From an uncultured Dehalococcoidia bacterium (GTDB taxonomy: Bacteria > Chloroflexota > Dehalococcoidia > UBA2247 > RBG-13-53-26), in assembly GCA_964492335.1 (NCBI GenBank), contig CAZBJX010000006.1, positions 1,963-65,962 of the forward strand: 64,000 bases of DNA. The letters run 5' to 3'. A program made the position numbers and the translations under genes. Shown here piece by piece: positions 24,047 to 43,576 of the stretch. The notes below the pieces were generated by a model. That model worked only from the letters and a program-made list of their open reading frames with translations, did not search any database and was not told the DNA's origin. Each line of letters opens with the position of its first letter. Positions within the stretch are counted from its first letter, which is position 1.

Positions 24047-25060
24047 GTGACCATCATACGGGGATTCGAAGGCCTTGACCAGACCGACATCCGGTTGATC
24101 GCCGAGCTGGAGGCGAACCCCCGGCAACCGCACACGGAGATTGCTTCCAGGCTGGGGCTGAGCCGGGACACCGTCCGGGCCCGGCTCGAGAGGCTGCTGG
24201 AGACCCGGGCGGTGCGCATAGTGGGCGTGGCGGACCCCATATCGGTGGGGTACACCACCTCGGTGATCATGGGCATCAACGTCCGCTCGCACCGGCTGCT
24301 GGCCGTGGCCGACCGGCTGGCTTCCCTGGCCCCGGTGCAGCACCTGATGCTCTGCATGGGGCGGTTCGATATCATGGCCTACGGCCTCTTCCAGAGGCGG
24401 ACGGACTTCCTGGACTTCCTGGTGGGCCACATTGGCCGCGTGGCCGGAGTGCTGCATATCGAGACCATGCTGACCCTGCGCAACACCAAGATCTTCGGAC
24501 CGCTGCTGTCGGATGGGTCCGGCGCATATCCGGGGCAGACCCCCGTCTCGGCCCTGGACCCCCTGGATTTTGCCCTGATGAGGGAGCTGCAGACCGACGC
24601 CAGACAGAACAGCCGCCGGCTGGCGCAGAAGCTGGGCACCAGCCAGTCCACCGTGCTGCGGAAGATACAGGCGCTGCAGAGCGCCGGTGTCATGCGGATA
24701 GCGGCGCTGGCCAACCCTGTAGTCCTGGGCTACGAGGGAGTGGCGTCCATCGGCATGAAGTTCGACCCGGCCAGGCTTGAGGAGGGGGCCAGGGTGATCG
24801 GCTCGTGCCGCAACGTGCAGACGGTGGCCGTCTGCGCCGGGCGCTATGACATCGTGGCCTGGGCCATGTTCCGGGAGCTGGGAGACCTGTCGGATTTCAT
24901 CACGGTCGAGCTGGGTAGTGTGCCGGGGCTGCAGCACCTGGAGGCCATGACCAGCCTGAAGATCATCAAGGCCTCGCACGTCTACCTCGGCGAGGCGCCC
25001 GCCCCGGCGGTCACCGGGGCGGGGGGGGCGCAGGGGCCGGCCATGACCTCTGGCGATTGA
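24047..25060 (+). CDS. Tandem (duplicated) Lrp/AsnC-family transcriptional regulator, paralog 1 (GTG start)
   Basis: Two consecutive HTH_AsnC + RAM-like halves (DIRLIAELEANPRQPHTEIASRLGLSRDTVRARLERLLE... and DFALMRELQTDARQNSRRLAQKLGTSQSTVLRKIQALQ...). Confidence 0.8.
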   Translation: MTIIRGFEGLDQTDIRLIAELEANPRQPHTEIASRLGLSRDTVRARLERLLETRAVRIVGVADPISVGYTTSVIMGINVRSHRLLAVADRLASLAPVQHLMLCMGRFDIMAYGLFQRRTDFLDFLVGHIGRVAGVLHIETMLTLRNTKIFGPLLSDGSGAYPGQTPVSALDPLDFALMRELQTDARQNSRRLAQKLGTSQSTVLRKIQALQSAGVMRIAALANPVVLGYEGVASIGMKFDPARLEEGARVIGSCRNVQTVAVCAGRYDIVAWAMFRELGDLSDFITVELGSVPGLQHLEAMTSLKIIKASHVYLGEAPAPAVTGAGGAQGPAMTSGD

Positions 25061-25205
25061 CGGACACGCGCCTCTCTGCTACCATGGGGGGCGCAGGTGC
25101 GGAGTATCGTCCCGTAGAGTAAGACGCGCATGCACCATATGCACGGGTATAAGTGACGCGAACCGGTGACAGCCCGGCCGAAATAATGCGACGGAGGGAC
25201 GGCAG

Positions 25206-26825
25206 ATGATCAAACACATGGTGCCTGACAGATGGGACCTGGAAGTCGACCTGGTGGCAGTGGGATCCAGCGCCGGCGGCCTGACGGCGGCCATCATGGC
25301 GCGTGACCATGGCCTGAGCGCCGTGGTCCTGGAGAAGGGGGCGGTGCTGGGCGGAGGCACGGCCTATTCCGGCGGGGCCATCTGGATACCGCTCTCCCAC
25401 CACATGGCCGAGGTGGGGTGCAAGGACACGCGGGAGGGGGTGGTGCGCTACGTGCGCCAGTTGAGCATGGGGCACCATGATGAGGACATCCTGGGGGCGT
25501 ACCTGGACGCGGGGGCCCCGATGATGAAGTACCTGGAGGACCACACCCCGCTGCGCATGTGCGTGGAGGATGACAGCAGCGGCACCGAGTACTGCGCCGA
25601 TGTCCCCGGCGGCGTCACTCTGGGCCGCAAGCTGTGGCCGGACGCCAGGGTGATGCCCGGAGTCCTGGAGGAGGCCGAGAAGAAGCACCCCCTGGTCGCG
25701 AAGGTGTCGAAGGACCCGGTCAGGTACCTCATCGGCCCCCGGCCGCCATGGGTGCAGGGCCGGGCCCTCATCGGCGGCCTGGCGCTGGGCTGCGCGGACC
25801 GCGGCGTGGACGTGCTCACTGACACGCCTGGCAGGCAGCTTGTCGTGGACAACGGCCGGGTCATCGGCATCAGGGCCCAGCGGGAGGGCCGGGACTTCTT
25901 CGTCAGGGCAGCGAAGGGCGTTCTCCTGGCCACCGGCGGGTTCGAGTGGAACGAAGAGATGAACAGAAGGTTCATCTACTCGCCGCGCCTGGGCGCCTAC
26001 ACCTGCCCCACCAACGAGGGCGACGGCCACATCATGGGAATGGAAGTGGGGGCGGCACTGGCCCTGATGGGCCACAGCATATTCCAGCCGGGGCTGACCA
26101 TGCCCGGCGACGCCGTGGGGCACAACCAGATGCTCTGCCGCCCGTTCATCTACGGGTACCCGGGGTATATGATGGTCAACCGCGACGGCAGGCGCTGCTG
26201 CAACGAGTGCTTCTACCCGGACATGGGCCGGGCATTCCTGGAGTACGACCGGCAGAAGGGCGGCTTCCGGAACCTGCCCATATTCGCCGTCATGGACCAG
26301 GGGTTCCGGGACATGTTCCCCTTCGCCGGGCTCAAGCGGGGCGGCACCGAGGTGAACGATCTGGTCAAGAGGGGGGATACCCTGAAGGCCCTGGCCGAGA
26401 CCATCGGCATCTCCGGCGACAACCTGAGCCAGACCGTCGACCGGTTCAACCGCTTCGCGCGGGAGGGCAAGGACCCGGACTTCCATCGCGGCGAAAGCGC
26501 CTACGACCTGCGCTGGGCGGAGGCCATCTTCCCCAACCGCGGCCCCATGGCGGTGCTGGGCCCGCTGGAGAAGCCGCCGTTCTATGCCGTGAAGCTGGAG
26601 CTGACCACGGCCGGCAACCTGGGCGGGCTGGTGATCAACACCCATGCCCAGGTGATAGACGTGCGCGGCGAGGTCATCCCGGGGCTCTACGGGACCAGCA
26701 ACACCACCGCCATGCTGCCGCTGGGGTATCACTACGACAGCGGGGCGGCGCAGGGCAAGAGCATGGTGTTCGGCTACGTGGCAGCCAACCACATGGCGGG
26801 CAGCGGGCAGCAGCCCCGGAAGTGA
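25206..26825 (+). CDS. FAD-dependent oxidoreductase of the fumarate reductase / 3-ketosteroid-delta1-dehydrogenase (KstD) flavoprotein family
   Basis: N-terminal FAD-binding motif DLVAVGSSAGGLTAAIMARDHGLSAVVLEK. Size 539 aa. Internal ...GGFEWNEEM... and C-terminal ...GLYGTSN... blocks typical of the FAD_binding_2 family. Confidence 0.75.
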   Translation: MIKHMVPDRWDLEVDLVAVGSSAGGLTAAIMARDHGLSAVVLEKGAVLGGGTAYSGGAIWIPLSHHMAEVGCKDTREGVVRYVRQLSMGHHDEDILGAYLDAGAPMMKYLEDHTPLRMCVEDDSSGTEYCADVPGGVTLGRKLWPDARVMPGVLEEAEKKHPLVAKVSKDPVRYLIGPRPPWVQGRALIGGLALGCADRGVDVLTDTPGRQLVVDNGRVIGIRAQREGRDFFVRAAKGVLLATGGFEWNEEMNRRFIYSPRLGAYTCPTNEGDGHIMGMEVGAALALMGHSIFQPGLTMPGDAVGHNQMLCRPFIYGYPGYMMVNRDGRRCCNECFYPDMGRAFLEYDRQKGGFRNLPIFAVMDQGFRDMFPFAGLKRGGTEVNDLVKRGDTLKALAETIGISGDNLSQTVDRFNRFAREGKDPDFHRGESAYDLRWAEAIFPNRGPMAVLGPLEKPPFYAVKLELTTAGNLGGLVINTHAQVIDVRGEVIPGLYGTSNTTAMLPLGYHYDSGAAQGKSMVFGYVAANHMAGSGQQPRK

Positions 26826-26892
26826 GCGCCGGGGGCAGAGTGAACGATGCAGGCGCGCCAGAGCGCGCCGGTGAAACGGGAGGGCACCAGCT

Positions 26893-27957
26893 ATGGCGGC
26901 ACACGAAGCTTATGTGAAACTGGCGGAGCTGTCGGGACACAAGGACTCAGAGATCCTGCACCGGATCCTGGAGACGGCCATGAAGCCGGAGGAGGCCTAC
27001 TTCCTGCTGGCGCTGCCGGCCTCCAATACCGACCTGGCGGCCAGGTTCAAGATGACCGAGAAGGAGGTCGAGGACGAGCTGCTCCAACTGGCCCGGCGGG
27101 GCCTGGTGGTGACCTCGCGCAAGGGCATCCGCTTCCCCCGGGACCTGGGGACGCTGCACGACAACATCCTGGCCAGCGTGCCGGAGCTCATACCGGAGGG
27201 GATGGGCCAGCTGTGGATGGACCTGTACGATGAGGGCTGGTGGAAGGAGATCGTGGCCGGCCTGACCCAGCTGCCCGTCCCGGCCCTGCGGGTCATCATG
27301 CCCATGAAGGCCATGCCGGCCGGCTTCCAGCCCCTGCCTCACGAGAGCGCCGAGGCGATCATCATGGCGCACAAGGACCTCATCAGCATCCGGCGCTGCT
27401 GCTGCCGGGTGGGGATGCAGTCGTGCCGACAGGGGGAGTGCCATCACCCCACATTCACCTGCACCCAGTTCGGGCGGAGGGCGGAATACGACCTGTACCG
27501 TGGTAGCGGCACGAGAGTCTCGGCGGATGAGGCTATCGCCGTCCACCATCAGGCCACTGAAGCGGGCCTGACTCCCACGGTGACCAACATCTCCGCCATG
27601 CAGAGCCTGGAGTTCATCTGCTACTGCTGCACCGACGCCTGCCTGGTGTTCCACCCCCTCCTGCGGGGAGACAAGGTCATGGCGGCCGTGCGGCCCAGCC
27701 GCTTCCTACCCCGGGTCGATGAGAAGCTCTGCCGCGAGGGGTGCCAGGAGTGCGTGCAGGTCTGCGGCTTCGGCGCCATCGAGATCAAGAGCGGCCCGGG
27801 CGGCAAGGGGCAGGTGGCCGTGATCAACAAGGAGAAATGCGTGGGCTGCGGGCTGTGCGCCATCAAGTGCGGGCCCGGGGCCATCGTCATGGAACTGGTG
27901 CATCCCCCGGAATTCATCCCGGAGACGCTCACCGGCCCGTCATCCATCGTTCATTAG
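26893..27957 (+). CDS. Fe-S protein: N-terminal winged-helix-like region, central Cys-rich block (RRCCCRVG...C...C; CYCCTDAC) and C-terminal 2x[4Fe-4S] ferredoxin domain
   Basis: Two CxxCxxCxxxCP motifs (CREGCQECVQVCGFGA; CVGCGLCAIKCGPGA) plus unusual CCC and CYCC clusters. Directly follows the flavoprotein gene. Confidence 0.6.
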   Translation: MAAHEAYVKLAELSGHKDSEILHRILETAMKPEEAYFLLALPASNTDLAARFKMTEKEVEDELLQLARRGLVVTSRKGIRFPRDLGTLHDNILASVPELIPEGMGQLWMDLYDEGWWKEIVAGLTQLPVPALRVIMPMKAMPAGFQPLPHESAEAIIMAHKDLISIRRCCCRVGMQSCRQGECHHPTFTCTQFGRRAEYDLYRGSGTRVSADEAIAVHHQATEAGLTPTVTNISAMQSLEFICYCCTDACLVFHPLLRGDKVMAAVRPSRFLPRVDEKLCREGCQECVQVCGFGAIEIKSGPGGKGQVAVINKEKCVGCGLCAIKCGPGAIVMELVHPPEFIPETLTGPSSIVH

Positions 27958-27979
27958 CGGGACGTCCGGCGCGCCGGCC

Positions 27980-28501
27980 TCATGGCGCCGCCCGCGCGCG
28001 GTCACGGCAGCGCCGGACGATGCCGCGCAGCGCTGCTGCTGCTGCGGCCGCTCCGGTGGCCCCGGCCTCCAGGGCGGCCACGGTGGCGGCCACCTCCTCT
28101 TCGATGCCGAGCGGCGCCAGCCAGCTCCTGTCCCCGATCTTGAGCGGGGGCTCGATGAAGATGCCCAGGCCCCAACCCCGCCGCAGCGCCTCGGAGATCT
28201 CCACCGCCGGCTTGTTGAGCAGGGCGCGCTCTTCGGCGCTGAGCGCCTCGCTCTCCAGGATGCGTTCGCAGAAGTAGAGGCGGCACTTGGCCGGACGGAA
28301 CTCGAATATGGGGCAAGCGGAGAAGCGCGGGGAGTAGAGCTCGCACCCGATGCGGCGGCAGCACTCGCCGCCGCAGTCCCCGCAGATACCCCCGGCATGC
28401 CGGCCCAGCATGCGAACGGCCCCGGCGGCCTGAGCTCCGAAGCCGGCCTCGAACTCGGCGTCGGTGTAGAAGACCCGTGGATGACTGCTCGGCGCCTGCA
28501 T
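27980..28501 (-). CDS. YkgJ/UPF0153-like cysteine-cluster protein (putative Fe-S/Zn oxidoreductase); start trimmed to MQAPSSHP (ATG 28499-28501)
   Basis: CGDCGGECC...C...C...C resembles the CxxCxxCC YkgJ-family motif. The rest of track ORF 27980..29593 is an over-extension overlapping the next gene. Confidence 0.4.
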   Translation of the reverse strand: MQAPSSHPRVFYTDAEFEAGFGAQAAGAVRMLGRHAGGICGDCGGECCRRIGCELYSPRFSACPIFEFRPAKCRLYFCERILESEALSAEERALLNKPAVEISEALRRGWGLGIFIEPPLKIGDRSWLAPLGIEEEVAATVAALEAGATGAAAAAAALRGIVRRCRDRARAAP

Positions 28502-28578
28502 GGCCCCAATACCTCGTCCAACGATCGGGAGGGCCCGATATCGCGCTCGAGCCCTCCCGATATTGATCTGGGAAGTCG

Positions 28579-30699
28579 CTATATCTTCATGCCGATCCGG
28601 GCGCCGTCCTCGATGGCCCCCAGTATCAGGCGGACATCGGCGCAGTCGCCGGCCTGGTAGAGCTCCGGCAGCTGGCCTTCCAGCGCCTGGTAGAGCCCCG
28701 GGTTGTTCTTGATGCCCTCGGCGATGACCACTGTATCGCACTCGATGGTCCGGGCCTTCTTCTCCTTGTCGGTGAAGACCACGCCCTTCTCGGTGAACTT
28801 CCCGTACACGGCCTTGTTGTGCATGACGACGCCGTGCCGGCGCAGCTGGCCTAGGACCCTCCAGCGTCTGGCGATGGACATCTCCGGCGCCATCGATCTC
28901 TCGGTGGAGACCACGGTCACCTTCCGGCCCCTTTCCACCAGGAACTCGGCCAGCTCCACGGCCACCAAGTCGCCGCCGATGACCACCACGTTCCTGCCCA
29001 CGGGCATCCAGCGGCGGGTGAGCGCGGCTGCCTGCGAGGGTCTCAGGCGCTGCAGCACCGGCTTGGCCAGCGGCAGCCCCAGCTTCATCCACCAGGCCAT
29101 CTTGCCGGAGTGGTCCCGCCCGTTCATCATCTCCCGGAGGTCCTTGCCGGTCATCACATTGCGCCGCTCGTCGCCGGGGATCCGGGGCGCGTCGATGTTG
29201 GGCCCGACGGCCACGATGGTCACGTCGTGCCCGGCCGCCTTGATGGACTCCGGGGTGACCTCCACCCCCATCCTGATGTCGATGGGCAGCTTCTTCATCT
29301 GCGCCACCATCCAGTCCAGCAGGGCCTCGTTGTCCTCGCTGACCACCGAGGCGAAGACCAGCGAGCCGCCCAGACGCTTGTTCTTCTCGTAGAGGGTCAC
29401 CTTGTGACCGCGCAGGGCCGCGATGCGGGCGGCCTCCATCCCGGCCGGGCCGCTGCCGATGACGGCCACGCTGCGGGGCTTCTGGGCCGCCGAGGACCGG
29501 AACTCGGCCTCCCGGCCGCAGGCCACGTTCACGGAGCAGATGGTGGAGCTGTCCTCGACGTGAGCGCTGGCGCACTCGTAGCAGCGGATGCACGGCCGCG
29601 CGTCGTCCCTCCTGCCCGCGGCCAGCTTGTTGGGCAGCTCGGGGTCGGCCAGCAGGGGCCGGCCCATGGCGATGAAGTCGGCCTTGCCCAGGCGCAGCAT
29701 CTCCTCACCCAGCTCCGGGCTGATGCGGCCCACCGCTATCACCGGTATCCTGACGGCCTGCTTGACGTTCCAGGCGTCGGCCACCAGGCGGCCGGGCAGG
29801 TAGGGGATCGGGGCGTCGATGAAGGTGGTGGGGACGGGCCCGTAGCCGCTGACGTGGATGGCGTCGACCCCGGCCTCCTGCAGCATGACGGCCAGCGCCC
29901 GGCTGTCTGCCGGGGCGATGCCCCCCTCGATCTCCCATTCCCGGCCGTCGATGCGGCACCAGACGGGGTAGTCCCGGCCCACCTTCTCCCTGATGGCCTC
30001 TATGATCTCCAGCAGGAAGCGGGCGCGGTTGGCCAGCTCGCCGCCGTACTGGTCGGTCCGCCGGTTGGCGCTGGGGGACAGGAAGGAGTCTATGAGGTAG
30101 CCGTGGGCGGCATGGACCTCCACCCCGTCGAAGCCGCTCGCCCGGGCCCGCTCCGCGGCCCGGGCGAAGAGGGCCACGTAGTGCGGTATCTCCTCGAGGG
30201 CCAGCGCCCTGGTCTTGAAATCCTTGGGCATCTTGCTGAACCGCTGCGCCATCCGCACGATTTCCTCGAGGTTCATGTCCGCGGCCGCATTGGCGTCGGC
30301 GGCCGCCATCTCCGAGGCGGTCACCGGCTGAACGGCCAGGCACACGTCCACCGTGGCTATCTTGCCCGCGTGCTGCAGCTGTGCTGCGATCCTGGCGCCG
30401 TGCCGGTGCACCGCCTCGGTCAACTCCCTGAGGCCCGGAATGTGCCTGTCGTCCGCGATAGACAGCTGCTCCGTCTCGCAGCGGCCCCCGGTGGGATCGA
30501 CCGAGAGCACCCCCGGTATGATGAGGCCGGCCCCACCCCTGGCGCGCTCCTCGTAGTAGTCCTTGAGGCGCTGGGTTACCATGCCTTCGTCGGTGGCATA
30601 GCCGGTCCCCATGGGGGCCATGATGATGCGGTTGCGCAGCTCCATCCGGCCGATGCGGCCGGGCTCCAGAAGCTTGGCATACCCTGGATCAGTAGCCAT
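28579..30699 (-). CDS. Two-domain NADH:flavin oxidoreductase (OYE-like TIM barrel + FAD/NAD(P)-binding domain; 2,4-dienoyl-CoA reductase / enoate reductase / BaiCD-BaiH family), paralog 1
   Basis: Start MATDPGYAKLLEPGRIGRMELRNRIIMAPMG. HAAHGYLIDSFLSP and RCIRCYECA (4Fe-4S Cys cluster). C-terminal GSGPAGMEAA Rossmann motif. Confidence 0.85.
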   Translation of the reverse strand: MATDPGYAKLLEPGRIGRMELRNRIIMAPMGTGYATDEGMVTQRLKDYYEERARGGAGLIIPGVLSVDPTGGRCETEQLSIADDRHIPGLRELTEAVHRHGARIAAQLQHAGKIATVDVCLAVQPVTASEMAAADANAAADMNLEEIVRMAQRFSKMPKDFKTRALALEEIPHYVALFARAAERARASGFDGVEVHAAHGYLIDSFLSPSANRRTDQYGGELANRARFLLEIIEAIREKVGRDYPVWCRIDGREWEIEGGIAPADSRALAVMLQEAGVDAIHVSGYGPVPTTFIDAPIPYLPGRLVADAWNVKQAVRIPVIAVGRISPELGEEMLRLGKADFIAMGRPLLADPELPNKLAAGRRDDARPCIRCYECASAHVEDSSTICSVNVACGREAEFRSSAAQKPRSVAVIGSGPAGMEAARIAALRGHKVTLYEKNKRLGGSLVFASVVSEDNEALLDWMVAQMKKLPIDIRMGVEVTPESIKAAGHDVTIVAVGPNIDAPRIPGDERRNVMTGKDLREMMNGRDHSGKMAWWMKLGLPLAKPVLQRLRPSQAAALTRRWMPVGRNVVVIGGDLVAVELAEFLVERGRKVTVVSTERSMAPEMSIARRWRVLGQLRRHGVVMHNKAVYGKFTEKGVVFTDKEKKARTIECDTVVIAEGIKNNPGLYQALEGQLPELYQAGDCADVRLILGAIEDGARIGMKI

Positions 30700-30802
30700 G
30701 GTCAATCTCCCTTCAGCTTTCTCTGTCGCTTGCCCTTGGTAACCGTCAGCCGCCTTGCGGCGGCGGCCCATCCCGTATCCGGCATCCCCCGTCTCCGCCT
30801 CA

Positions 30803-32824
30803 TCAGATCCTGCATCCCGCGTCGTAGCCGGTGGCGATGGCGGCCATGATGGTCCCCTGCTCCCGATCGTCGACGCCAGCGGCGTCCCCCACTATCCTGA
30901 CCTCTATGTTCTTTGCTTCCGCCACCTCGGCCAGGAAGACGTTGGGCCTCCTCTCGCCGGCCAGCACGATGGTGTCTATCCCGGGCAGCTTCTGCCTTGC
31001 GGCGGCGCCCGCCGGGGGCTGGCCGGCGCCTGCCGGCGTCCGGCCGGAGGCCACCACCCAGACCTCGCCCCCGGGAAGGATCTCCACCTTGGCCACCTTC
31101 TTGTACTGCTTCACGCCTTTGGCCGCCAGCCGCGACATCAGGTAGCGCCGGTCATTGGTGGCCAGCTTCGTGGCGAAATGAGGACCGGCCTCCACCACGT
31201 ACACGGCCTTGCCCTGCTCGGCCAGGTAGTGGGCCGTCTGCATCCCTATCTGGTCGCCGCCCACCACCAGCACCGTGTCTGCGGTGGCCCGGCGGTCCTC
31301 CAGCAGCTCGTCCACGGTCATCAGGTCGATCTGCCCGATGTGTTCCAGGCCTTCCACGAACCCCAGGGAGGCCTCAGGCAGGCTGCCGGTGGCCAGCACC
31401 AGGACATCCGGCCGGAGCCGGTCCAGCAACTCCCCGTCGACCAGCGTGTTCAAGCGGACCTCCACCCCCAGCCGGTGCAGTTGCCGCTCATACCAGGGGA
31501 GGATGTCCGCCATCTCCACCCTTTCGGGTATCATGGCCGCCAGGCGCAGCTGCCCGCCCACGTGTCCCCTGCCTTCGCACAGCGTCACCCGGTGGCCGGC
31601 AAAGGCCGCCCTCCTGGCCGCCTCCAGCCCGGCCACCCCGGCCCCCGCCACCAGCACCCGCCGGGGCGAGCCGCTCTTCTCGCCCGCCACTTCCCGGAGG
31701 GCGTGCTCCCGCCCCACCCGAGGGTTGACGGCGCAGCTGGCCGCGGCGTGGCGGAAGATCCCTTCGATGCAGCCCAGGCACTCGGCCAGGCAGGGCCGGA
31801 TGTCGGCCAGGTTGCCTTTCCTGGCCTTCTCCACCAGCTCCGGGTCGGCCAGCTGGGCCCGGGCCATGCAGACGAAGTCGGCCTGGCCGTCCCTGACGAT
31901 GCGGTCGGCCATGGCGGGGTCCTTGATCCGCCCCACCGTGCCCACGGGGATGGAAACGTGCTTCTTGACCTCCTCGGCGAACCTGATGAAGGCCCCCTGG
32001 GGCTCGTACATGGGGGCAATGTTGACCTGTATGGTGCCGTACGAGAAGCCGCCCTGGGTGATATTGAGGTAGTCTACCCCTTCCTGCTCCAGGATGGGCG
32101 CCAGGCGGCAGAGCTCGGGCAGCTGCCATCCGCCCTCGCCGATGAAGTCGTCGCCACCGAGCCGCACGCCCACCGGGGTCTCCGCCCCCACCCTGCTCCT
32201 CACCTCGCGGACCACCTCCAGCAGGAAGCGGACCCTGTTCTCGAAGGGCCCCCCGTACTCGTCGGTGCGCTGGTTGTAGCGCGGCGTGAGGAACTCGTTG
32301 ATGAGGTAGGCATGCGCGCCGTGGACCTCGATGAAGTCGAAGCCGATGCCGATGCAGCGCTGCGCAGCCAGCCCGAAGGCGTGGACGAACTCCCGGATTT
32401 CCTCGCGGGTGGCGGCCGTGGTGGGGCCTATCTCTGTGCCCGGCGGGCGTTCCGAGGGGACGATCGCCAGGGCGGGGAGGTGCCCCAGGCCGCAATGGGT
32501 AAGCTGCGCGCCGAAGGGGACCTCATGCTGGTGCACCGCCCTGACCAGGCCCTCCAGGCTGGGCAGCATGCTCTCGTCAGAAACCAGCAGCATGTGGACG
32601 GTGGCCGGGTCGGCGATGCCCGTGGGGTGGACGGCCATGGCGGGAGACACGATCATCCCCGGCCGGCTCCGGGCCCTTTCGACCAGAAAGGCGATGAACT
32701 CCTCCGTCACCCGGCCCTCGTCGTCTATGCCGAAGCTGGGGTCCATCCCCGGCACGACGATGCGGTTGGCCAGCTGCATGGAGCCTATCTTCAGCGGCTG
32801 GAAGACGTGCCTCAGTCTCTCCAA
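30803..32824 (-). CDS. Two-domain NADH:flavin oxidoreductase (OYE-like + FAD/NAD-binding), paralog 2; probable TTG start coupled to the upstream FAH stop (TGA-GGAG-caagcc-TTG)
   Basis: LKIGSMQLANRIVVPGM, HGAHAYLINEFLTP, RPCLAECLGCIEG, GAGVAGLEAA. The ATG at 32899 overlaps the FAH gene by 60 nt, so the TTG at 32822-32824 with an adjacent GGAG is preferred. Confidence 0.75.
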   Translation of the reverse strand: MERLRHVFQPLKIGSMQLANRIVVPGMDPSFGIDDEGRVTEEFIAFLVERARSRPGMIVSPAMAVHPTGIADPATVHMLLVSDESMLPSLEGLVRAVHQHEVPFGAQLTHCGLGHLPALAIVPSERPPGTEIGPTTAATREEIREFVHAFGLAAQRCIGIGFDFIEVHGAHAYLINEFLTPRYNQRTDEYGGPFENRVRFLLEVVREVRSRVGAETPVGVRLGGDDFIGEGGWQLPELCRLAPILEQEGVDYLNITQGGFSYGTIQVNIAPMYEPQGAFIRFAEEVKKHVSIPVGTVGRIKDPAMADRIVRDGQADFVCMARAQLADPELVEKARKGNLADIRPCLAECLGCIEGIFRHAAASCAVNPRVGREHALREVAGEKSGSPRRVLVAGAGVAGLEAARRAAFAGHRVTLCEGRGHVGGQLRLAAMIPERVEMADILPWYERQLHRLGVEVRLNTLVDGELLDRLRPDVLVLATGSLPEASLGFVEGLEHIGQIDLMTVDELLEDRRATADTVLVVGGDQIGMQTAHYLAEQGKAVYVVEAGPHFATKLATNDRRYLMSRLAAKGVKQYKKVAKVEILPGGEVWVVASGRTPAGAGQPPAGAAARQKLPGIDTIVLAGERRPNVFLAEVAEAKNIEVRIVGDAAGVDDREQGTIMAAIATGYDAGCRI

Positions 32825-32834
32825 GGCTTGCTCC

Positions 32835-33638
32835 TCAGTCGTGGTCCACCACGTAGTTGCGCAATGTGCCGATCTTCTCGATCTTGATCTCGACGACATC
32901 GCCGGGCCTCATCGGGCCGATGCCGGACGGCGTTCCGGTGGCGATGACGTCCCCCGGCAGCAGGGTCATGATGCAGGATACGAAGCTGACGATCTGGTCC
33001 ACGCCGAAGATGAGGTCGCTGGTGCGCGCCGACTGGCGCAGTTCCCCATTGACGAAGGACTCCACGGCCAGGTCTTCGGGATCGGCCTCGATCTCGATCC
33101 ACGGGCCTATCGGCGCGAAGGTGTCGTGCCCCTTGGCCCTGGTCCACTGCCCATCTGACTTCTGAGAGTACCGCTCCGACACGTCGTTGAAGCAGGTGTA
33201 TCCCAGGACGTATCGCCTGGCCTGTTCCCGCGTGACCCCCCGGGCCTGCCGGCCGATGACCACGGCCAGCTCCGCCTCGTAGTCCACCCGGCGCCGGTCC
33301 TGCCGGGGCAGGACGATCCGGTCCTCCGGCCCGATGACCGCCGTGGGGGGCTTGAGGAAGAGGAGCGGAACAGCAGGAATAGGCAGGCCCGTTTCGATGG
33401 CGTGGCTGCGGTAGTTGACCCCCAGGCAGACGATCTTGGAAGGGGTGCAGGGGGCCAGCAGCTTCACCTCGTCCAGGCGGTGCTCCCGGCCGTCGAGCTG
33501 GTACTGCAACCCGTGCTGGCGGCGGGATGAAAACGGGCTGTTTTGGAAGGCCCAGACATGGTCGCCATCGATCATCCCGTACCGCGGCCGGCCGCCGCTC
33601 CTGAAGCGTACGATGCGCAAGCTCACCTCCCTGGCCAA
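32835..33638 (-). CDS. Fumarylacetoacetate hydrolase (FAH) family protein (2-keto-4-pentenoate hydratase / HpcE-like)
   Basis: CLGVNYRSHAIE, the metal-binding E/D pattern, GDVIATGTPSGIG near the C-terminus. Confidence 0.8.
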   Translation of the reverse strand: MAREVSLRIVRFRSGGRPRYGMIDGDHVWAFQNSPFSSRRQHGLQYQLDGREHRLDEVKLLAPCTPSKIVCLGVNYRSHAIETGLPIPAVPLLFLKPPTAVIGPEDRIVLPRQDRRRVDYEAELAVVIGRQARGVTREQARRYVLGYTCFNDVSERYSQKSDGQWTRAKGHDTFAPIGPWIEIEADPEDLAVESFVNGELRQSARTSDLIFGVDQIVSFVSCIMTLLPGDVIATGTPSGIGPMRPGDVVEIKIEKIGTLRNYVVDHD

Positions 33639-33773
33639 CTAACCGCGACGGCCGTGTCTCCCGGTCCGGCGTGCATGCATGATGTTGACTCGGAAGCAAT
33701 TGTGTGACAGAATACACTTGTCCAGATGTAAAGGATTATAGCATCCAGCGTAGCCAGATGCAAGAGAGCAGGC

Positions 33774-34760
33774 GTGACAAAAGAGCCATCTGTATCCAAG
33801 CGCATTGATCTCAGTGACCTGGACCTGCGGCTCATCAGGCTGCTGGAGTCCGACTCGCGGAGCACCCAGTCGGGGCTGGCGGCCAAGCTGGGCATCAGCC
33901 GCCCCACGGTGGGCGCCGTCATGCAGAAGCTGACGGAGGCCCGGGTGATACGGCCGGTGTGCCTGGCAGACCACGTGGCCCTGGGGTACACGGACAGCGT
34001 GGTCTTCGGCATCAACACCATGCCGGGGAAGATGCTCAAGGTGGCCGGGGCCCTGGCATCCATGGCCCCCGTTCACTGGGTCGCCGTCTGCGCCGGGCCC
34101 TTCGACATCATGGCCTGGGGCCTCTTCAAGGGGAGGGGCGAGGTGCTGGAGTTCCTGACAGGCGAGCTGGGCAGGGTGCGGGGCATGTCGCGGTTCGAGA
34201 CGGTGATGTGCCAGGAGGTCAAGATATCCCCGGCGCTCCTCTCCGCGGACGAGGGCTACCGGCCGGGCGGGAGGCAGGTCCCGCTGGACCGGCTGGACGT
34301 GGCCCTCATCGGCACGCTGCAGCGGGACAGCCAGCAGACCGCCGCCGACCTGGCCCTGAAGCTGCGCACCAGCAAGCCCACCATCCTGCGCCGGATGAAG
34401 CGGCTCCATGACGAGGGCGTCATCAGGCTGGTGACCATGGTCGATCCCCGGGCCCTGGGATACAGCCTGGTGGTCTCCTCGGGCCTCAAGGTGGCCCCCG
34501 ACAGGATCGACGAGGTGGTGGAGGCGGTGGGGAACCACCGCAGCGTGCACAGTGTGGCGCTGTGCACCGGGCGGTACGACGTGCTGGCCTGGATGATCTT
34601 CCGGGACCGGCCGGAGATGATGGACGTGCTGAGCGGCCAGCTGGGCAAGATCCATGGCATCAGGAGCATGGAGACCGTCACCTGTCTGAAGATAGTGAAG
34701 GCTTCGTTCATGTACGTGAACTGGCAAGGGGATCTCTGGGAGAGTCTGAAGGAGGAGTGA
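33774..34760 (+). CDS. Tandem (duplicated) Lrp/AsnC-family transcriptional regulator, paralog 2 (GTG start)
   Basis: Two AsnC-type halves (DLRLIRLLESDSRSTQSGLAAKLGISRPTVGAVMQKL...; DVALIGTLQRDSQQTAADLALKLRTSKPTILRRMKRL...). Confidence 0.8.
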   Translation: MTKEPSVSKRIDLSDLDLRLIRLLESDSRSTQSGLAAKLGISRPTVGAVMQKLTEARVIRPVCLADHVALGYTDSVVFGINTMPGKMLKVAGALASMAPVHWVAVCAGPFDIMAWGLFKGRGEVLEFLTGELGRVRGMSRFETVMCQEVKISPALLSADEGYRPGGRQVPLDRLDVALIGTLQRDSQQTAADLALKLRTSKPTILRRMKRLHDEGVIRLVTMVDPRALGYSLVVSSGLKVAPDRIDEVVEAVGNHRSVHSVALCTGRYDVLAWMIFRDRPEMMDVLSGQLGKIHGIRSMETVTCLKIVKASFMYVNWQGDLWESLKEE

Positions 34761-34768: not shown

Positions 34769-36691
34769 ATGAACTATGATCGTCTGTTTGAGCCCGGCAA
34801 GATCGGGAAGATGGACCTGAAGAACCGGATAGTGATGCCCGCCATGGGCGTCTCCCTGTCAGACGCCAGGGGGTCGGCCACTGACAGGGAGATCGCCTAC
34901 TATGCGGCCAGGGCCAGGGGAGGGGCGGCCCTCATCACGCCGCACTACGCCTCGGTCAGCGCCGATTCCTCGCTGCCGTACACCATCGTCATCAGCGACG
35001 ACGGGCAGGTGAAGCACTGGAAGGCCCTGGCCGATGCCGTCCATGCGGCCGGGTCCAAGCTGTCGGTGCAGCTGATGCACATCGGCATGATCTACCTGTA
35101 CTCGGGGTTCGTTCCTGAAGGCATGGCCATCAAGGTGCCCAGCACCACCCTGTGGCTGAAGAGCACCTACAGCTACCACGTGCTCAACGAAAAGGAGATC
35201 GAGGGGTACATCGAGGACTTCGGCCAGGCCGCCCGGCGGGCCAGGGAGGCCGGGGCTGACGCCGTCGAGCTGCATGCCTGCCACGGCTGCCTGGTCAGCA
35301 CCTTCATGTCCCCCCTGACCAACAAGCGGACGGACCAGTGGGGTGGGAGCGTGGAGAACCGGGCCCGGTTCGCCCGCCGGATACTGGAGCGCATGAGGGA
35401 GGTGGTGGGGCCGGAGTTCCCCATCATCGTGCGCATGAATGCCAGTGATGATATCGAAGGCGGCGTCAGCATAGAGGAGGCCATGGAGCAGGCCTCCATC
35501 ATGGAGAAGGCCGGCGCGGATGCCATCAGCGTGTCCTCCGGCATGGAGTTCTGGACGCCCCAGGGGATCCCGGCCTACCCCTTCCCGGAGGGGGCCATGG
35601 TCCCGCTGGCGGAGAAGATCAAGCAGGCGGTCAAGGTCCCGGTCATCGCCGCGGGCAAGATCACCCCCGAGGTGGCCGTCAGGGTCCTGGAGGAAGGCCA
35701 GGCCGATTTCGTAGCCCTGGGGCGGCCCCTGCTGGCGGACTCCGACCTGCCGAACAAGATCCGCGAAGGGCGCCGGGAGGACGTGCGGAACTGTCTCTAC
35801 TGCAACAACTGCCTGCGGATGGAGACGGGCACTCCGTCCTGCACCGTCAACCCCTTCCTCTTCCGGGAGTCCCGGTATCCGCTGAAGCCGGCGGAGAAGG
35901 CGAAGAAGGTCATGGTTGTCGGGGGAGGCCTGGCCGGGATGGAGACGGCCGTGCTCCTGGCCGAGCGGGGCCACAAGGCGACCATCTACGAGATGACCGG
36001 CGAGCTGGGCGGCCAGTGGAACGTGGCCTGCGCCTCGCCGGGGAAGGGCAGCTACCGGCACCTCACCGACTACCTGAACAAGCAGATAGCCCGGCTGAAG
36101 ATACCGGTGGAGCTCCACCAGCAGGTCACCCGCGACACGGTGATCAAGGCGGCGCCGGACACCGTGGTCCTGGCCACCGGCGCGGTGCCCATCGGCCTGA
36201 GAGTGCCGGGGGCTGACAAGAAGCATGTCATCCAGGGGCATGACGTCCTGGCGGGCAAGGTCGGCGTCCAGGGCCGGTCCGTGGTGGTCGGTGGCCGCTT
36301 CATCGGCATGGAGGTGGCCATCAAGCTGGCCGAAGAGGGCCAGCCGGTCTCCATCATCACCCGCGGGGGGCTGGGGGAGAACGGAGTGAAGCTGGAGAAG
36401 TTCACCTTCCAGTCCATCGCCAACAGGCTTATCGAGCTGGGGGTGCCCCTCTATCTGAACGCCACCGTGGTGGAGATCAACGACAAGTCGGTGATCATAA
36501 TGATGAACGGCGAGATATACCCGGTGCCGGCCGACACGGTGATCTTCTCCGTGGGCATGCGGTCGGTGGCCGGCCTGGCCAGGGAGCTGGAGGGGACCGG
36601 CATCGAGTATCACCTGGTGGGGGACTGCGTCAAGCCCAGGGATGCCTGCGAGGTCCACACCCAGGCGGCCAAGATCGCCGCGCTGATCTAG
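34769..36691 (+). CDS. Two-domain NADH:flavin oxidoreductase (OYE-like + FAD/NAD-binding), paralog 3; start ATG 34769 (MNYDRLFEPGKIGKM)
   Basis: HACHGCLVSTFMSP, NCLYCNNCL Cys cluster, VVGGGLAGMETAV Rossmann. GGAGGAG SD is embedded in the last codons of the upstream Lrp gene. The track ORF start at 34562 is an over-extension overlapping the Lrp gene. Confidence 0.85.
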   Translation: MNYDRLFEPGKIGKMDLKNRIVMPAMGVSLSDARGSATDREIAYYAARARGGAALITPHYASVSADSSLPYTIVISDDGQVKHWKALADAVHAAGSKLSVQLMHIGMIYLYSGFVPEGMAIKVPSTTLWLKSTYSYHVLNEKEIEGYIEDFGQAARRAREAGADAVELHACHGCLVSTFMSPLTNKRTDQWGGSVENRARFARRILERMREVVGPEFPIIVRMNASDDIEGGVSIEEAMEQASIMEKAGADAISVSSGMEFWTPQGIPAYPFPEGAMVPLAEKIKQAVKVPVIAAGKITPEVAVRVLEEGQADFVALGRPLLADSDLPNKIREGRREDVRNCLYCNNCLRMETGTPSCTVNPFLFRESRYPLKPAEKAKKVMVVGGGLAGMETAVLLAERGHKATIYEMTGELGGQWNVACASPGKGSYRHLTDYLNKQIARLKIPVELHQQVTRDTVIKAAPDTVVLATGAVPIGLRVPGADKKHVIQGHDVLAGKVGVQGRSVVVGGRFIGMEVAIKLAEEGQPVSIITRGGLGENGVKLEKFTFQSIANRLIELGVPLYLNATVVEINDKSVIIMMNGEIYPVPADTVIFSVGMRSVAGLARELEGTGIEYHLVGDCVKPRDACEVHTQAAKIAALI

Positions 36692-36711
36692 CCAGTACTG
36701 GCGGTAAGCAA

Positions 36712-39615: not shown

Positions 39616-39870
39616 GCCTTGGACCTTTCTGTCCCGCCTGACATTGCCCTGGGTGTCCCCTCTTGACGTTCTCCCCATGGCTGAAGCCAAGGGGCTTGCG
39701 GCCTTCGTTCTCCTGGTCAATGCGGGACGACGGGCGTGCCTTCTTCTCCCTCGCTCCAGACTATAGCATCCTGCTTCACCTTCTTCCTCCGCAGCATTGT
39801 GCCTGGTCATAATGGAAGGCTAGCACGCCGCAGGTGAAGTGGCGGCAAAGGAGGTCGGCCTGCCGGCACG

Positions 39871-40986
39871 TCAGGGCCGGGGGATGAGCGGCAGGGTCAC
39901 CCGGAAGGTGCTCCCGGCGCCGAGGGTGCTCTCCACGGAGACGGCGCCGCCGTGCTCCTCAACGATCTTCTTGACTATGGCCAGGCCCAGGCCGCTGCCT
40001 CCCTGGGCCCGGGACCGGGACTTGTCGACGCGGTAGAAGCGGTCGAAAACGTGCTGCCTGTCGCTGGCCGAGATGCCCACGCCGGTGTCCCTGATCTCGA
40101 GGACCGCGCTGGATCCCTCGGCCCGGGCCGAGATCTCGATCATCCCTTCGGGGCGGTTGTACTTGATGGCGTTGTCCACCAGGTTGGTGATAACCTGCTT
40201 GATGGCGATGGCGTCGCCTCTGACCTGGAGGCCCTGCGGGACGCCGGCGGCCTCCAGGCTGACCCGGGCGGCAGCGGCCGCGGGCTGGGACTCTGCCACC
40301 ACCTCGTCAACGAGCGATGCCAGGTCCAGCTCCGCCCACCTGATCTGCGGCTGGCTCCCCTGCGACAGCAGCAGCAGCCCCTGGCTGAGGAAATCGAGCC
40401 GTTCCAGGCTGCGCTTGACCACCCCCGTCGTGAGCCGGTAGTCCTCCACCGTGGCGTCCTGGTCCATCTCCAACACCTCGATGTTGGTCTGGGCGGTGGC
40501 AATGGGCGTCTTCAGCTCGTGCGAGGCATCCTGGACGAACTGCTTCTGGGACTCGAAGGCGCTGTCCAGCCGCTCCAGCATGTCGTCGAAGGTGTCCGCC
40601 AGGCGCTTCATCTCATCCTGCGGCCCCTGGCGGTTGATTCTCTCTTTGAGGTTGGTGTGGGAAATGCGTGCCGCCAGGGAGGAAACGCGATCCACAGGCT
40701 CCAGCATTATGCCCGAGATGATGTAGCCGGCCACCGCGCCCAGGACCAGGATGGCGCCAACGGCAATATAGGAGTAGGTGCGCAGGTCGGACAGGCTGCG
40801 TTCTCTCTCTTCCAGGCGGGGATCGCTGCCGGGGAAGTTGCCCGGTCCCGGCGGCTCACGCCCGGCCATGGCCAGGTTGATGGCGAACAGCAGCGCCAGC
40901 AAGAGGACCACCAGCATCCCTGAGTACCACAGAGTGAGCCGGAAGCGGATCGTCTTGAAGAAAGCGGGGATTTGCATGCTCTTCAC
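39871..40986 (-). CDS. Sensor histidine kinase (2 TM + HAMP + HisKA + HATPase_c)
   Basis: H-box [14 protein letters not shown]; N/G1/G2 boxes ([27 protein letters not shown]). Overlaps the upstream regulator gene by 4 nt. Confidence 0.85.
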
Positions 40987-41648
40987 CCGATCATGTAGCC
41001 TTTCCCCTTAATGGTCGCGATCAGGCCCTCCCCGCCGGCGGCGTCCAGCTTCTTGCGCAGGTTGTTGATGTGCACCTTGATCGACTGGGTGAAGAGGTTG
41101 GCATCCTCGCTCCAGACGTGCTCCAGCAGGTCTTCCTGGCTCACCACGCAGCCGGCGTGGCGCATCAGGTACTCCAGTATCCCGAACTCCTTGGCGGTGA
41201 GGGGCACCAGGTTGTCCCCGAGCGACACCCGGTGCGCATTGGGGTCGAGCACCAGGTCGCCGACCCTCAGTATGACCTTGCGCTGTTCCCCTTCGCGGCG
41301 CAGGATGGCCCTCACCCGGGCCAGCAGCTCGGGGAAGTGGAACGGCTTGAGCAGGTAGTCGTCAGCGCCCTGGTCCAGCCCCTCCACGCGGTCGGTCACC
41401 GCCGTGCGGGCCGTGAGCATCAGTATCCCGACGGATGACCCGGTGCCCCGGATCCTGCGGCAGACCTCCACCCCGTCGACCTTCGGCAGGTTCAGGTCAA
41501 GGACCAGGAGATCGTATTCGTTGATCTCGGCCACCCGCAGGGCCTCCTCTCCGTCGTAGACCACGTCGACGGCGTAGCCCTGCCGCCCCAGCCCCCTGGC
41601 CAGGGCGTCGGCCAGGTCCTTCTCGTCCTCCACCACCAGGATGCGCAT
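40983..41648 (-). CDS. OmpR/PhoB-family response regulator
   Basis: MRILVVEDEKDLADAL...DLLVLDLNLP receiver; C-terminal winged-helix LTAKEFGILEYLM. Confidence 0.9.
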   Translation of the reverse strand: MRILVVEDEKDLADALARGLGRQGYAVDVVYDGEEALRVAEINEYDLLVLDLNLPKVDGVEVCRRIRGTGSSVGILMLTARTAVTDRVEGLDQGADDYLLKPFHFPELLARVRAILRREGEQRKVILRVGDLVLDPNAHRVSLGDNLVPLTAKEFGILEYLMRHAGCVVSQEDLLEHVWSEDANLFTQSIKVHINNLRKKLDAAGGEGLIATIKGKGYMIG

Positions 41649-41718
41649 GGCTTCGCCGCCGATTATAGCACCGGGAAGTTAAGCCAAAGTAAAGAGGTCT
41701 TTGGGAGGGCCGGAGAGC

Positions 41719-42597
41719 TCAGGCCAGGCCCTTCTTCTCAAAGTACATGGCATACGCAGCGACGAACATCTCCGACCCCGCCGGGCCGAACTCCAGGCCG
41801 AAGCGGCGCCGGGCATCGGCGGCGAAGCGCTGTGCGATCTCGGAATGGGAGCCGCCCCTCCGGAGGCCATCGAGGACCATCGCGGAGCAGAGACGGGTAT
41901 TCTCCACCGCCCTCGAGAAGGCGGATTCGATTTCGGTGTCCGCGCCTCCATGGGAGCAGAAGAGCACCCGCGGATGGAGCCGGCGCAGCGTCTCGATGGT
42001 CGACAGGTAGTCCTCTTCGTCGAAGCTGTAGGGGGCCACGCTGGGCAGCAGGTGCGGCGGCACGCCCAGGGCTTCACCGCAGAAGAGGCCCTGCTGACTT
42101 CTGTCCAGGATGGCCAGGTGGTGCGAGGCATGCCCCGGCGCGTGGATGAACTGCAGCTCCCGGCCTCCGAGGGTGACGGCCTCACCGTCCGCAACGCCCC
42201 TCAGGCGGGACTCGGGAACGGGGAGCACCGTTCCCGAACGTTTCTCGAAGTCGCTGCCGTAGATCCTCCCGGTGACCTCGATGAGGCGGGCTGGGTGGGC
42301 CAGGTGCCTGACCCCGACCGGATGCACCAGCACCATGGCGGTCGGGTAGAGCGCCGCCAGCGCCCCCGTGCCGCCGGCGTGGTCCACATGGACATGGGTA
42401 AGGATGATATAGCCCAGGCGGCCCAGGCCGAGGTGCTCCAGGGCCTGTCTCACGAATGGGAGGGCGGCGGCCGGGCCCGGCTCGATCAGTGCGCCATCGC
42501 CATCTGCCACGAAGTACGAGACCGCCGGCACCAGCTCATCGGCCAGCGGGGCTTCCAGCCTGTAGGTCCTGTCTCCCACCTCGGTCAAGCCATCCAT
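41719..42597 (-). CDS. MBL-fold metallo-hydrolase
   Basis: THVHVDHAGG (HxHxDH) motif. Start chosen at MDGLTEV so it does not overlap the upstream Lrp gene. Confidence 0.75.
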   Translation of the reverse strand: MDGLTEVGDRTYRLEAPLADELVPAVSYFVADGDGALIEPGPAAALPFVRQALEHLGLGRLGYIILTHVHVDHAGGTGALAALYPTAMVLVHPVGVRHLAHPARLIEVTGRIYGSDFEKRSGTVLPVPESRLRGVADGEAVTLGGRELQFIHAPGHASHHLAILDRSQQGLFCGEALGVPPHLLPSVAPYSFDEEDYLSTIETLRRLHPRVLFCSHGGADTEIESAFSRAVENTRLCSAMVLDGLRRGGSHSEIAQRFAADARRRFGLEFGPAGSEMFVAAYAMYFEKKGLA

Positions 42598-42607
42598 CAA
42601 ATCCCCT

Positions 42608-43576
42608 TCACTTCCTGCCATCCCCGGCGGGCGGCTGCGCCCCGAAGCCCCAGTCGGCCCCGAGGTTGTCCTTGGTCACCTTCATCAGCACCATCACCTC
42701 ATGGCTGACCACCCCGGGCACCGTGCCGAGGTACTCCCTGACGAACCTGGACAGGTCCTCCCGGGTCTTGAGGAAGATGGTGAAGAGCAGATCGAAGGAC
42801 CCGGTGGTAATGACCACGTGGTGCGTCTCCGGCGATGCGGAGAGGGTGGCGGCGGCCTGGTCGATCATGCCCGGCCGCATGCTGAGGCCGATGTTGGCCC
42901 TGATGGTGTAGCCCAGGCGGACCGGGTCGGCCACGGCGATGACCTGCAGGACCTGGTCCTCGATCAGGCGCTCGATCCGCCGCCGGGCCGTGGCCTTGCT
43001 GCACCCGGCGGGGCCGGCCAGGCTGGTGTAGGCGCTGCGGGGGCTGGCGCGGAGCTGCCGCAGCAGGCGGTAGTCCAGCTCGTCGAGCCGCCGCCGGGGA
43101 GGCCTGCCCCCGCCGGCGGATATGCTCCTGTTGGCCAGCATGGAGAGAGAGAACTTGGCCACCTTGAGGCTGACCATGGTCTCGGCCCTGGTGATGTCCT
43201 TGATGGGCGCCAGGCTGGAGCTGACGAAATCCCACAGGTCCACCGTCTCCGGCAGGGACACCGAGGCGAAGATGTCGTAGCGCCCGGTGTGCATGGACAC
43301 GTGGTACACCTCGCGGATGTCCGCCAGCCGGCGGGCCACGGAATCGATCCGGCTGGGCGGCGCATTGATGGCCACCAGCAGCTGCCGGGTGTGGCCGATG
43401 GCCAGCGGGTCGACCAGCGTCAGGAAGCGGATGACCCTGTGCCGCTCCAGCCGCTCGAGCCGGTCGGCGATGGTGGACCAGCTCAGCCGCAGGTTGCCCG
43501 CCAGATCGGTGACGCTCTGCCGCCCGTCCCGCTCCAGCTCGGCGATGAGGCGCAGGTCAAGCTCGTCCAGTAGCAC
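42608..43576 (-). CDS. Tandem (duplicated) Lrp/AsnC-family transcriptional regulator, paralog 3
   Basis: Two AsnC-type halves (LDLRLIAELERDGRQSVTDLAGNLRLSWSTIADRLERL...; DYRLLRQLRASPRSAYTSLAGPAGCSKATARRRIERL...). Confidence 0.8.
   Translation of the reverse strand: MLLDELDLRLIAELERDGRQSVTDLAGNLRLSWSTIADRLERLERHRVIRFLTLVDPLAIGHTRQLLVAINAPPSRIDSVARRLADIREVYHVSMHTGRYDIFASVSLPETVDLWDFVSSSLAPIKDITRAETMVSLKVAKFSLSMLANRSISAGGGRPPRRRLDELDYRLLRQLRASPRSAYTSLAGPAGCSKATARRRIERLIEDQVLQVIAVADPVRLGYTIRANIGLSMRPGMIDQAAATLSASPETHHVVITTGSFDLLFTIFLKTREDLSRFVREYLGTVPGVVSHEVMVLMKVTKDNLGADWGFGAQPPAGDGRK

Follow-up and report, generated by a model that had tools for sequence, protein, structure and literature searches.

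Three fused double-unit Lrp/AsnC proteins beside catabolic gene cassettes of an uncultured Dehalococcoidia bacterium: candidate local regulators and a conserved candidate operator

What do proteins that carry two Lrp/AsnC units in a single chain regulate, and how would they recognise their DNA? This question is raised by a stretch of 64,000 nucleotides from an uncultured Dehalococcoidia bacterium (Chloroflexota; assembly GCA_964492335.1, contig CAZBJX010000006.1, positions 1,963 to 65,962), in the following called the window, which encodes three such tandem proteins, here named Lrp1, Lrp2 and Lrp3, each beside a different set of enzyme genes. Dehalococcoidia are abundant in sediments and aquifers and mostly uncultured, and to our knowledge almost nothing is known about their catabolic regulation outside of the reductive-dehalogenase genes. 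An earlier note on this DNA had described the three proteins as paralogous, substrate-responsive switches, with palindromes of TGTCA/TGACA half-sites beside the third as candidate operators. Our analysis suggests that they are probably fused double-unit Lrp/AsnC factors of a family expanded in Dehalococcoidia, each of which locally regulates its adjacent catabolic operon. This reading draws on domain architecture, fold, conserved synteny and conserved cis-elements, and the underlying gene map was rebuilt with a GC3-based gene caller and profile scans.

The three double-AsnC open reading frames (ORFs) proposed by the earlier note were confirmed by translation, Pfam and NCBIfam, with two complete units of helix-turn-helix (HTH) and RAM domain each: Lrp1 (24047..25060, plus strand, 337 aa, in the order HTH-RAM-HTH-RAM), Lrp2 (33774..34760, plus strand, 328 aa) and Lrp3 (42608..43576, minus strand, 322 aa). 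Every protein gave two Pfam matches to the AsnC-type HTH (PF13404/PF13412; E 1e-16 to 1e-24) and two to the RAM domain (AsnC_trans_reg, PF01037), while in NCBIfam all three stayed below every equivalog cut-off and resemble generic Lrp/AsnC proteins. With a profile built from the six half-proteins, a search of all six reading frames of the window gave no AsnC-like ORF besides these three. For Lrp3 an AlphaFold model of the monomer was obtained with a predicted local distance difference test (pLDDT) of 91 and a predicted template modelling score (pTM) of 0.86, in which the beta-alpha-beta-beta-alpha-beta RAM units are visible. The Lrp halves superimpose on solved Lrp regulators, among them the FL11-DNA complex 2e1c, with template modelling (TM) scores of 0.8-0.89, root mean square deviations of 1.5-2.3 and sequence identities of 22-30% (28-30% to true regulators). 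Moreover, the G-R-[YF]-D motif is kept in both RAM domains. By each criterion of sequence and fold tested, Lrp1-3 are members of the Lrp/AsnC family. Within each group of orthologs conservation extends over all four domains and is lowest in the linker, which suggests that both DNA readers and both effector domains of a chain are functional. The two recognition helices of Lrp3 are unlike each other (SWSTIADR in the N-terminal and SKATARRR in the C-terminal unit). The tandem architecture is not rare in absolute terms; it is common in databases and routinely annotated, and with Lrp1 as query 163 or more clusters (50% identity) reach E<=1e-30, the best 150 listed being nearly all 300-360 aa long.

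As the earlier note had claimed, each Lrp gene adjoins its own cassette, and this pairing is kept in orthologous loci while the other flanks change. Lrp3 is divergent from an operon that encodes a VOC/glyoxalase-fold protein (43708..44262), a glycyl radical enzyme (GRE) of the PFL2/glycerol-dehydratase family (44296..46737), its radical-SAM activase (46741..47697) and a Zn-dependent alcohol dehydrogenase (ADH; 47727..48665), all on the plus strand and assigned by profile scans; the GRE matches the generic family model only, with no specific equivalog. In Lrp3 orthologs with 68%, 64% and 56% identity the position divergent from the (VOC-)GRE operon is kept and the genes on the other side are replaced. 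Lrp1 is followed on the same strand by a KstD-like FAD_binding_2 flavoprotein (25206..26825; Pfam), the nearest solved relatives of which are 3-ketosteroid dehydrogenases, and by a 354-aa protein with a C-terminal 2x[4Fe-4S] domain (26893..27957; profile scans). Downstream of Lrp1 orthologs (73-93% identity) a FAD_binding_2 gene always comes next, regardless of whether the upstream gene encodes a PAS kinase or a dehydrogenase, and in relatives with 58-61% identity (L009, L017, L018) a homolog of the 354-aa Fe-S protein directly follows. These neighbours of Lrp1 and Lrp3 agree with the cassettes named by the earlier note. At Lrp2 the note had seen a single OYE-type reductase; we find three, together with an FAA-hydrolase family protein (FAAH). 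The FAAH gene (32835..33638; profile, synteny) opens a minus-strand operon divergent from Lrp2, which continues with two two-domain OYE/pyridine-nucleotide-disulfide reductases, copy 2 (30803..32899; true start probably near 32830) and the BaiCD/FadH-like copy 1 (28579..30771), and which ends with a small Cys-rich protein (27980..28495; CxxCxxxCC-like). The latter is conserved in L001, L002, L021 and L022, in several loci likewise as the final gene behind the OYE pair, and has no match in Pfam or NCBIfam. OYE copy 3 (34770..36691, plus strand; all copies assigned by Pfam) is found in synteny in L019, L021 and L022, and it is probably co-transcribed with Lrp2, since it begins 9 bp downstream. 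The order FAAH<-OYE<-OYE / Lrp2->OYE is kept in L021 and L022; in L019 the OYE genes are kept and no FAAH gene was called, and the sequence of L014 ends inside the Lrp2 ortholog.

Which DNA element could be read by such a protein? The strongest candidate lies between Lrp3 and the VOC gene, where a 16-bp palindrome of the form TTGACA-N4-TGTCAA (TTGACACGATTGTCAA, 43654..43669; scan and alignment) is formed by the two back-to-back -35 hexamers of the divergent Lrp3 and VOC promoters. The top sigma-70-like site of the 20-kb region, TTGACA-18-TAGAAT (43654-43683), lies upstream of VOC, its -10 hexamer TAGAAT (43678..43683, plus strand) giving an 11/12 match together with the -35 hexamer. On the minus strand the -10-like hexamer TAGAAG of the Lrp3 promoter (43640..43645) is placed 18 bp from the minus-strand TTGACA. 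Within the window TTGACACGATTGTCAA is the only match with fewer than two mismatches, and in the region studied it is the sole match at <=2 mismatches. The exact form TTGACA-N4-TGTCAA was found, once each, in 12 of 12 loci in which the sequence upstream of an Lrp3 ortholog is available (a set that leaves out the 56-57% relatives P0110 and P0111), always at the VOC/GRE promoter, also where an insertion has moved the palindrome 1 kb away from the regulator gene. In an alignment of nine loci with a mean column identity of 51%, 13 of the 16 palindrome positions are invariant, while both -10 hexamers drift. Furthermore, the relaxed form TTGAC-N5/6-GTCAA occurs at 21 sites in the 752 kb of sequence fetched, against approximately one expected, and 20 of the 21 lie either at an orthologous GRE promoter or no more than 190 bp in front of a tandem-Lrp gene. 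These sites span four tandem-Lrp subfamilies, being present beyond Lrp3 in L008, L020 (with a variant in L006) and L029, and in L029 no divergent gene is present for which the second half-site could act as a -35 hexamer. Promoter function surely adds to the conservation of the palindrome, and on sequence grounds we regard it as a strongly conserved candidate operator for Lrp3.

Of the two palindromes with TGTCA/TGACA half-sites that the earlier note had put forward as operators, both are present and the first is the one described above. The second, a ATGTCAATGACAT palindrome ((A)TGTCAATGACA(T), 43616..43628), is specific to this window and is not conserved as a palindrome in the alignment of orthologs, and it was rejected as an operator. 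Another element in the Lrp3 leader is a conserved box, CGTGAAAGAGATCAT (43591..43605, minus strand), between the Lrp3 -10 hexamer and the start codon. It was matched as CGTGA-N-GATCAT in the window and in eight loci, at a distance of 65-66 bp from the palindrome where both coordinates are available. This spacing corresponds to about six helical turns.

The note had also suggested a search for TGTCA-type inverted repeats upstream of each cassette, and the motif search gave none that the three have in common: the control regions of Lrp1 and Lrp2 hold at most one TGACA each, TTGACA-N4-TGTCAA is absent from both, and an operator common to Lrp1-3 was therefore rejected. The Lrp2 control region (33639-33773) carries a TTGACTCGGAAGCAAT box. 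A promoter-like site of Lrp2 (33685..33713, plus strand; promoter scan) includes the 16-bp element TTGACTCGGAAG(C/T)AAT, which covers the -35 box and part of the spacer and is near-invariant in five loci; it may represent an asymmetric operator. A perfect extended -10 element, TGCTATAAT (33735..33743, minus strand), lies in a conserved block and would serve the FAAH-OYE-OYE operon. The Lrp2 promoter and this opposing -10 element face each other at a distance of about 25 bp (33685-33743), so the transcripts of Lrp2 and of FAAH-OYE-OYE would overlap at their 5' ends. The facing arrangement is kept in L014, L019 and L022 and only partly in the more diverged L021. In the control region of Lrp1 only the promoter hexamers and a conserved leader stand out. 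The promoter scan places a site TTGCCA-17-TAGCAT upstream of Lrp1 (23985..24013, plus strand), both hexamers of which are kept in seven orthologous loci, two of them with a different upstream gene, and a site TTGACG-17-TACCAT with a TG element upstream of the flavoprotein gene (25057..25085, plus strand). The conserved flavoprotein leader that follows (25086-25205) comprises about 120 nt with two GACGCG boxes, and L002 and L015 have an insertion of about 50 nt inside it. No riboswitch or other known RNA was found in the conserved leaders, the whole window being free of Rfam matches.

Are the three regulators paralogs, as the earlier note had claimed? For Lrp1 and Lrp2 the sequence comparison says so. 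They share 43% identity overall, with 45% between the N-terminal and 42% between the C-terminal halves and 31-39% for the cross pairs, and the clades Lrp1_N and Lrp2_N are sisters with a bootstrap of 100 in a neighbour-joining (NJ) tree of half-proteins; by this matching of corresponding halves Lrp1 and Lrp2 are true paralogs that derive from an already fused ancestor. Lrp3 is only distantly related. It shares 30-34% identity with Lrp1 and Lrp2, its halves pair clearly with neither the N-terminal nor the C-terminal halves, and its placement in the NJ tree is without support, the deep nodes having values below 40. Judged by these comparisons Lrp3 is a deeper, distant relative, and the NJ tree gives no support for one tandem ancestor of all three. 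In some other Chloroflexota tandem proteins the N-terminal half is most similar to its own C-terminal half, and closely related single-unit genes as well as adjacent pairs of single-unit genes occur (L023, L024, L036), so that the double architecture probably arose more than once through repeated duplications.

The named homologs and all 28 loci found in species-representative genomes come from Chloroflexota/Dehalococcoidia metagenome-assembled genomes, several of these genomes hold two or three members of the family each, and exact copies of Lrp2 and Lrp3 stand on one 92-kb metagenome contig. The scan of genome contigs used the narrow alignment A2 as query and caught Lrp3-type loci only where they lie near Lrp2. 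Actinobacterial tandem proteins form the outgroup to the Chloroflexota proteins in the half-protein tree. Taken together, the data support that Lrp1-3 belong to one Chloroflexota-specific radiation of tandem-Lrp regulators.

The earlier note had read the family as switches for alternative electron-acceptor or substrate modules, and the electron-acceptor part was not upheld: by a crude labelling, redox genes make up 39 of 141 genes within two genes of an Lrp gene and 85 of 358 farther out, which is no enrichment, and the contexts are varied. A redox-specific association of the family is not supported by these counts. Distant members (39-56% identity) adjoin genes for CoA-transferases, short-chain dehydrogenases, an epoxide hydrolase, aldehyde:ferredoxin oxidoreductases, thiolases and NTF2-like proteins. 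Near Lrp1-3 the genes encode CoA ligases, an ABC transporter, a hydratase-type FAA hydrolase, ene-reductases and a dehydratase-type GRE with its ADH, a content that reads more like substrate catabolism. The tandem-Lrp family looks like a group of local regulators of catabolic clusters and not like redox-specific switches. Some single-unit and split-pair relatives adjoin another conserved cluster (L033 10490-20626; also L023, L024, L030-L032 and L035), which contains a corrinoid (B12-binding) protein, an MtmB-like methyltransferase, a pterin-binding methyltransferase, DUF1638, two FAD_binding_2 proteins, an SRPBCC protein and OYE enzymes and looks like a demethylation-plus-reduction pathway.

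How might such a regulator work? We infer DNA binding to the elements described, repression rather than activation, the kind of effector and the oligomeric state from these observations, and the resulting mechanism is as follows. Each chain would form an intramolecular pseudo-dimer, in which two winged-helix DNA readers that are not identical are combined with a pair of RAM effector domains. Lrp1 would act on the genes of the KstD-like flavoprotein and the Fe-S protein, Lrp2 on its own Lrp2-OYE3 transcript and on the facing FAAH-OYE-OYE operon, and Lrp3 on the divergent VOC-GRE-activase-ADH operon and on itself. Lrp3 would sit on the 16-bp palindrome and hence over both -35 hexamers, probably in cooperation with a second contact at the phased box, which lies at a distance of 65 bp, and its binding would occlude both divergent promoters, repression being the most likely outcome. 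A small-molecule effector, either a substrate or an intermediate of the pathway, might then bind to the RAM domains and free the promoters. The effectors of Lrp1-3 are unlikely to be amino acids alone because of the catabolic neighbours.

Several points weigh against this mechanism and against local regulation in general. Each half of the palindrome is exactly a consensus -35 hexamer, and since the -35 boxes elsewhere in these loci show good conservation as well, its role as a promoter element accounts for part of what is conserved; the N-terminal and C-terminal recognition helices of Lrp3 differ, which makes a near-perfect palindrome a less than obvious target of one pseudo-dimer; for Lrp1 no motif comparable to the Lrp3 palindrome was found; and true control could lie with the two-component systems that are encoded beside Lrp1 and in the vicinity of Lrp3. 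In an alternative reading the palindrome consists only of paired -35 hexamers and Lrp3 binds elsewhere, for example at GTGA-N6-TCAT, or the GRE operon is controlled by another regulator such as a two-component system. The geometry fits, as each half is followed on its own strand by a -10-like hexamer after 18 bp and L008 shows the same arrangement, the -35 boxes of other promoters are likewise invariant among orthologs, and the dissimilarity of the two HTHs of Lrp3 would be accommodated. However, this type of palindrome is absent from the many other promoters and divergent regions in the 752 kb, and its recurrence beside four tandem-Lrp subfamilies, in L029 even without a divergent gene, renders two -35 hexamers an unlikely explanation on their own; moreover, the 16-mer is fixed while the -10 hexamers drift, even at 64-68% protein identity. 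We consider this alternative as a whole rather unlikely.

Local regulation by each tandem protein also has to be compared with two readings that concern the proteins themselves. Lrp1-3 could be global feast/famine-type or nucleoid-organising Lrp proteins that stand beside these cassettes merely because the surrounding catabolic island is made up of such genes. In model organisms Lrp proteins frequently act as global regulators, and redox genes are no more common within two genes of an Lrp gene than farther out. In the literature an lrp of Chloroflexi has been treated as a global regulator (PMC9088039). Such a role is nevertheless improbable for the proteins studied here, as specific regulator-operon pairs persist across 56-90% identity with the other flanks replaced, and as several paralogs per genome are typical of local regulators. 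The other possibility is that Lrp1-3 are no regulators at all and instead fused AsnC-like enzymes such as the siroheme decarboxylases NirDL and AhbAB. This idea arises because NirDL, an enzyme, is the only solved structure matched over the full length (TM 0.67-0.70, 15% identity), and because the NCBIfam profiles of AhbA and AhbB match the Lrp proteins weakly. The catalytic motif of siroheme decarboxylase is HxYxR (PMC4145669), and a regular-expression search found no occurrence of it in Lrp1, Lrp2 or Lrp3; the AhbA/AhbB scores amount to 32-54 bits versus cut-offs of 125-140, and the 15% identity to NirDL compares with the 28-30% of each half to true regulators. Among the genes scanned around the Lrp genes (18.7-49.5 kb) there are none for haem or haem d1, and the GRE activase gene is the only radical-SAM gene. 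An identity as siroheme decarboxylase was rejected because HxYxR is absent and the AhbA/B cut-offs are missed by far, and we regard it as extremely improbable.

The surroundings of the three cassettes provide further observations. Directly upstream of Lrp1 and on the same strand, a two-component system is encoded by a GerE-type response regulator (20997..21692; 85% identity by tblastn to its counterpart in L001, position shared with L012-L014) and a PAS-PAS-PAS HisKA_3 histidine kinase (21757..23946; Pfam), the latter being upstream of Lrp1 also in L001 and L012-L014. Similar two-component pairs occur near distant family members, on the P0111 contig and in L027. Their position beside tandem-Lrp genes suggests two layers of control. 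In the gene map an AMP-binding CoA ligase on the minus strand precedes the GerE regulator, and the segment 12000-20000, which holds ABC transporter and CoA-ligase genes, has a G+C content of 0.61-0.63 versus 0.65-0.71 elsewhere in the window (about 67% overall). In orthologs two SnoaL_4 (NTF2-like) genes lie between the flavoprotein and the Fe-S protein (L001 13012-14056, L002 4965-6009); in the window this pair is missing, only a gap of 67 bp being left (26826-26892), and the only SnoaL_4 homolog of the window is found at 8344-8838. Between OYE copy 3 and Lrp3 are genes for HtrA, MacB/FtsX, a histidine kinase/response regulator and a metallo-beta-lactamase protein, all on the minus strand. 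The nearest solved relatives of the GRE are choline trimethylamine-lyase and the glycerol/diol dehydratases; the GRE is always accompanied by the VOC protein and the Zn-ADH, which stays with it in L003 and L005. The gene directly after that of the ADH (48745-49452) encodes a protein in which a cytochrome-b5-like domain is joined to a DUF2231 membrane domain.

What could follow from these findings? As a tentative generalisation, which may well prove too broad, we suggest that tandem Lrp proteins might be the main one-component sensors of organic-substrate catabolism in non-dehalogenating Dehalococcoidia, acting as covalent asymmetric dimers with a shared TTGAC-N5/6-GTCAA operator type over back-to-back -35 boxes and with two different RAM pockets for ligands other than amino acids. 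If this is true, alicyclic or aromatic acids, diols and CoA esters would be candidate ligands, a first pair of regulator and operator for an uncharacterised dehydratase-type GRE would be given by Lrp3 and its site, and ligand screening would be a route to the GRE substrate. The triplet of regulator, operator and operon offers a concrete handle, as a screen of Lrp3 ligands could be directed at the substrate of this orphan GRE. The motif TTGAC-N5/6-GTCAA can be used for regulon prediction in metagenomes, and Lrp units that are fused in one chain and differ in their DNA readers represent a so far unstudied structural variant within a classic family of regulators. Current understanding is not overturned by these findings, which provide a useful lead.

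How do Lrp1-3 compare with known systems? Single-unit Lrp/AsnC regulators function as dimers, recognise semi-palindromic boxes and are modulated by small ligands. Each half of Lrp1-3 has the same winged HTH and RAM fold as these feast/famine regulatory proteins (FFRPs), such as FL11 (PH1519) of P. horikoshii, LrpA of P. furiosus, Lrp and AsnC of E. coli and LrpA/AldR of M. tuberculosis, whereas in Lrp1-3 two non-identical units are fused, so that the 'dimer' is covalent and asymmetric. The structure searches retrieved no solved tandem Lrp regulator, and the literature searched, the coverage of which is incomplete and no proof of absence, contained nothing relevant on a characterised one. NirDL and AhbA-AhbB share the double AsnC-like architecture, either fused or as heterodimers, and differ in being enzymes, the motif and genomic context of which are absent for Lrp1-3 and the profile cut-offs of which are not reached. 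With regard to the candidate operator, the control region of the archaeal regulator Ss-LrpB contains 15-bp palindromes, TTGCAAAATTTGCAA, at regular intervals, to which the protein itself binds (PMC1802622). Ss-LrpB is likewise a local Lrp, and the Lrp3 box resembles its sites in the TTG..CA / TG..CAA ends, the A+T-rich centre and the presence of a second phased box; in contrast, Ss-LrpB of Sulfolobus solfataricus is a single-unit homodimer, and the candidate box of Lrp3 is 16 bp long and at the same time constitutes two bacterial -35 hexamers. A likeness in architecture is found in Actinobacteria (Streptomyces, Nocardiopsis; P0066, P0118, P0121), in which tandem Lrp/AsnC proteins of about 335-350 aa with the same two units are annotated and uncharacterised; they share only 24-30% identity with Lrp1-3 and, as stated above, stand outside the Chloroflexota proteins in the tree. 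Measured against these systems, the new details are the lineage-specific expansion, the stable pairings of regulator and operon and the recurrent type of operator, and not a new kind of system.

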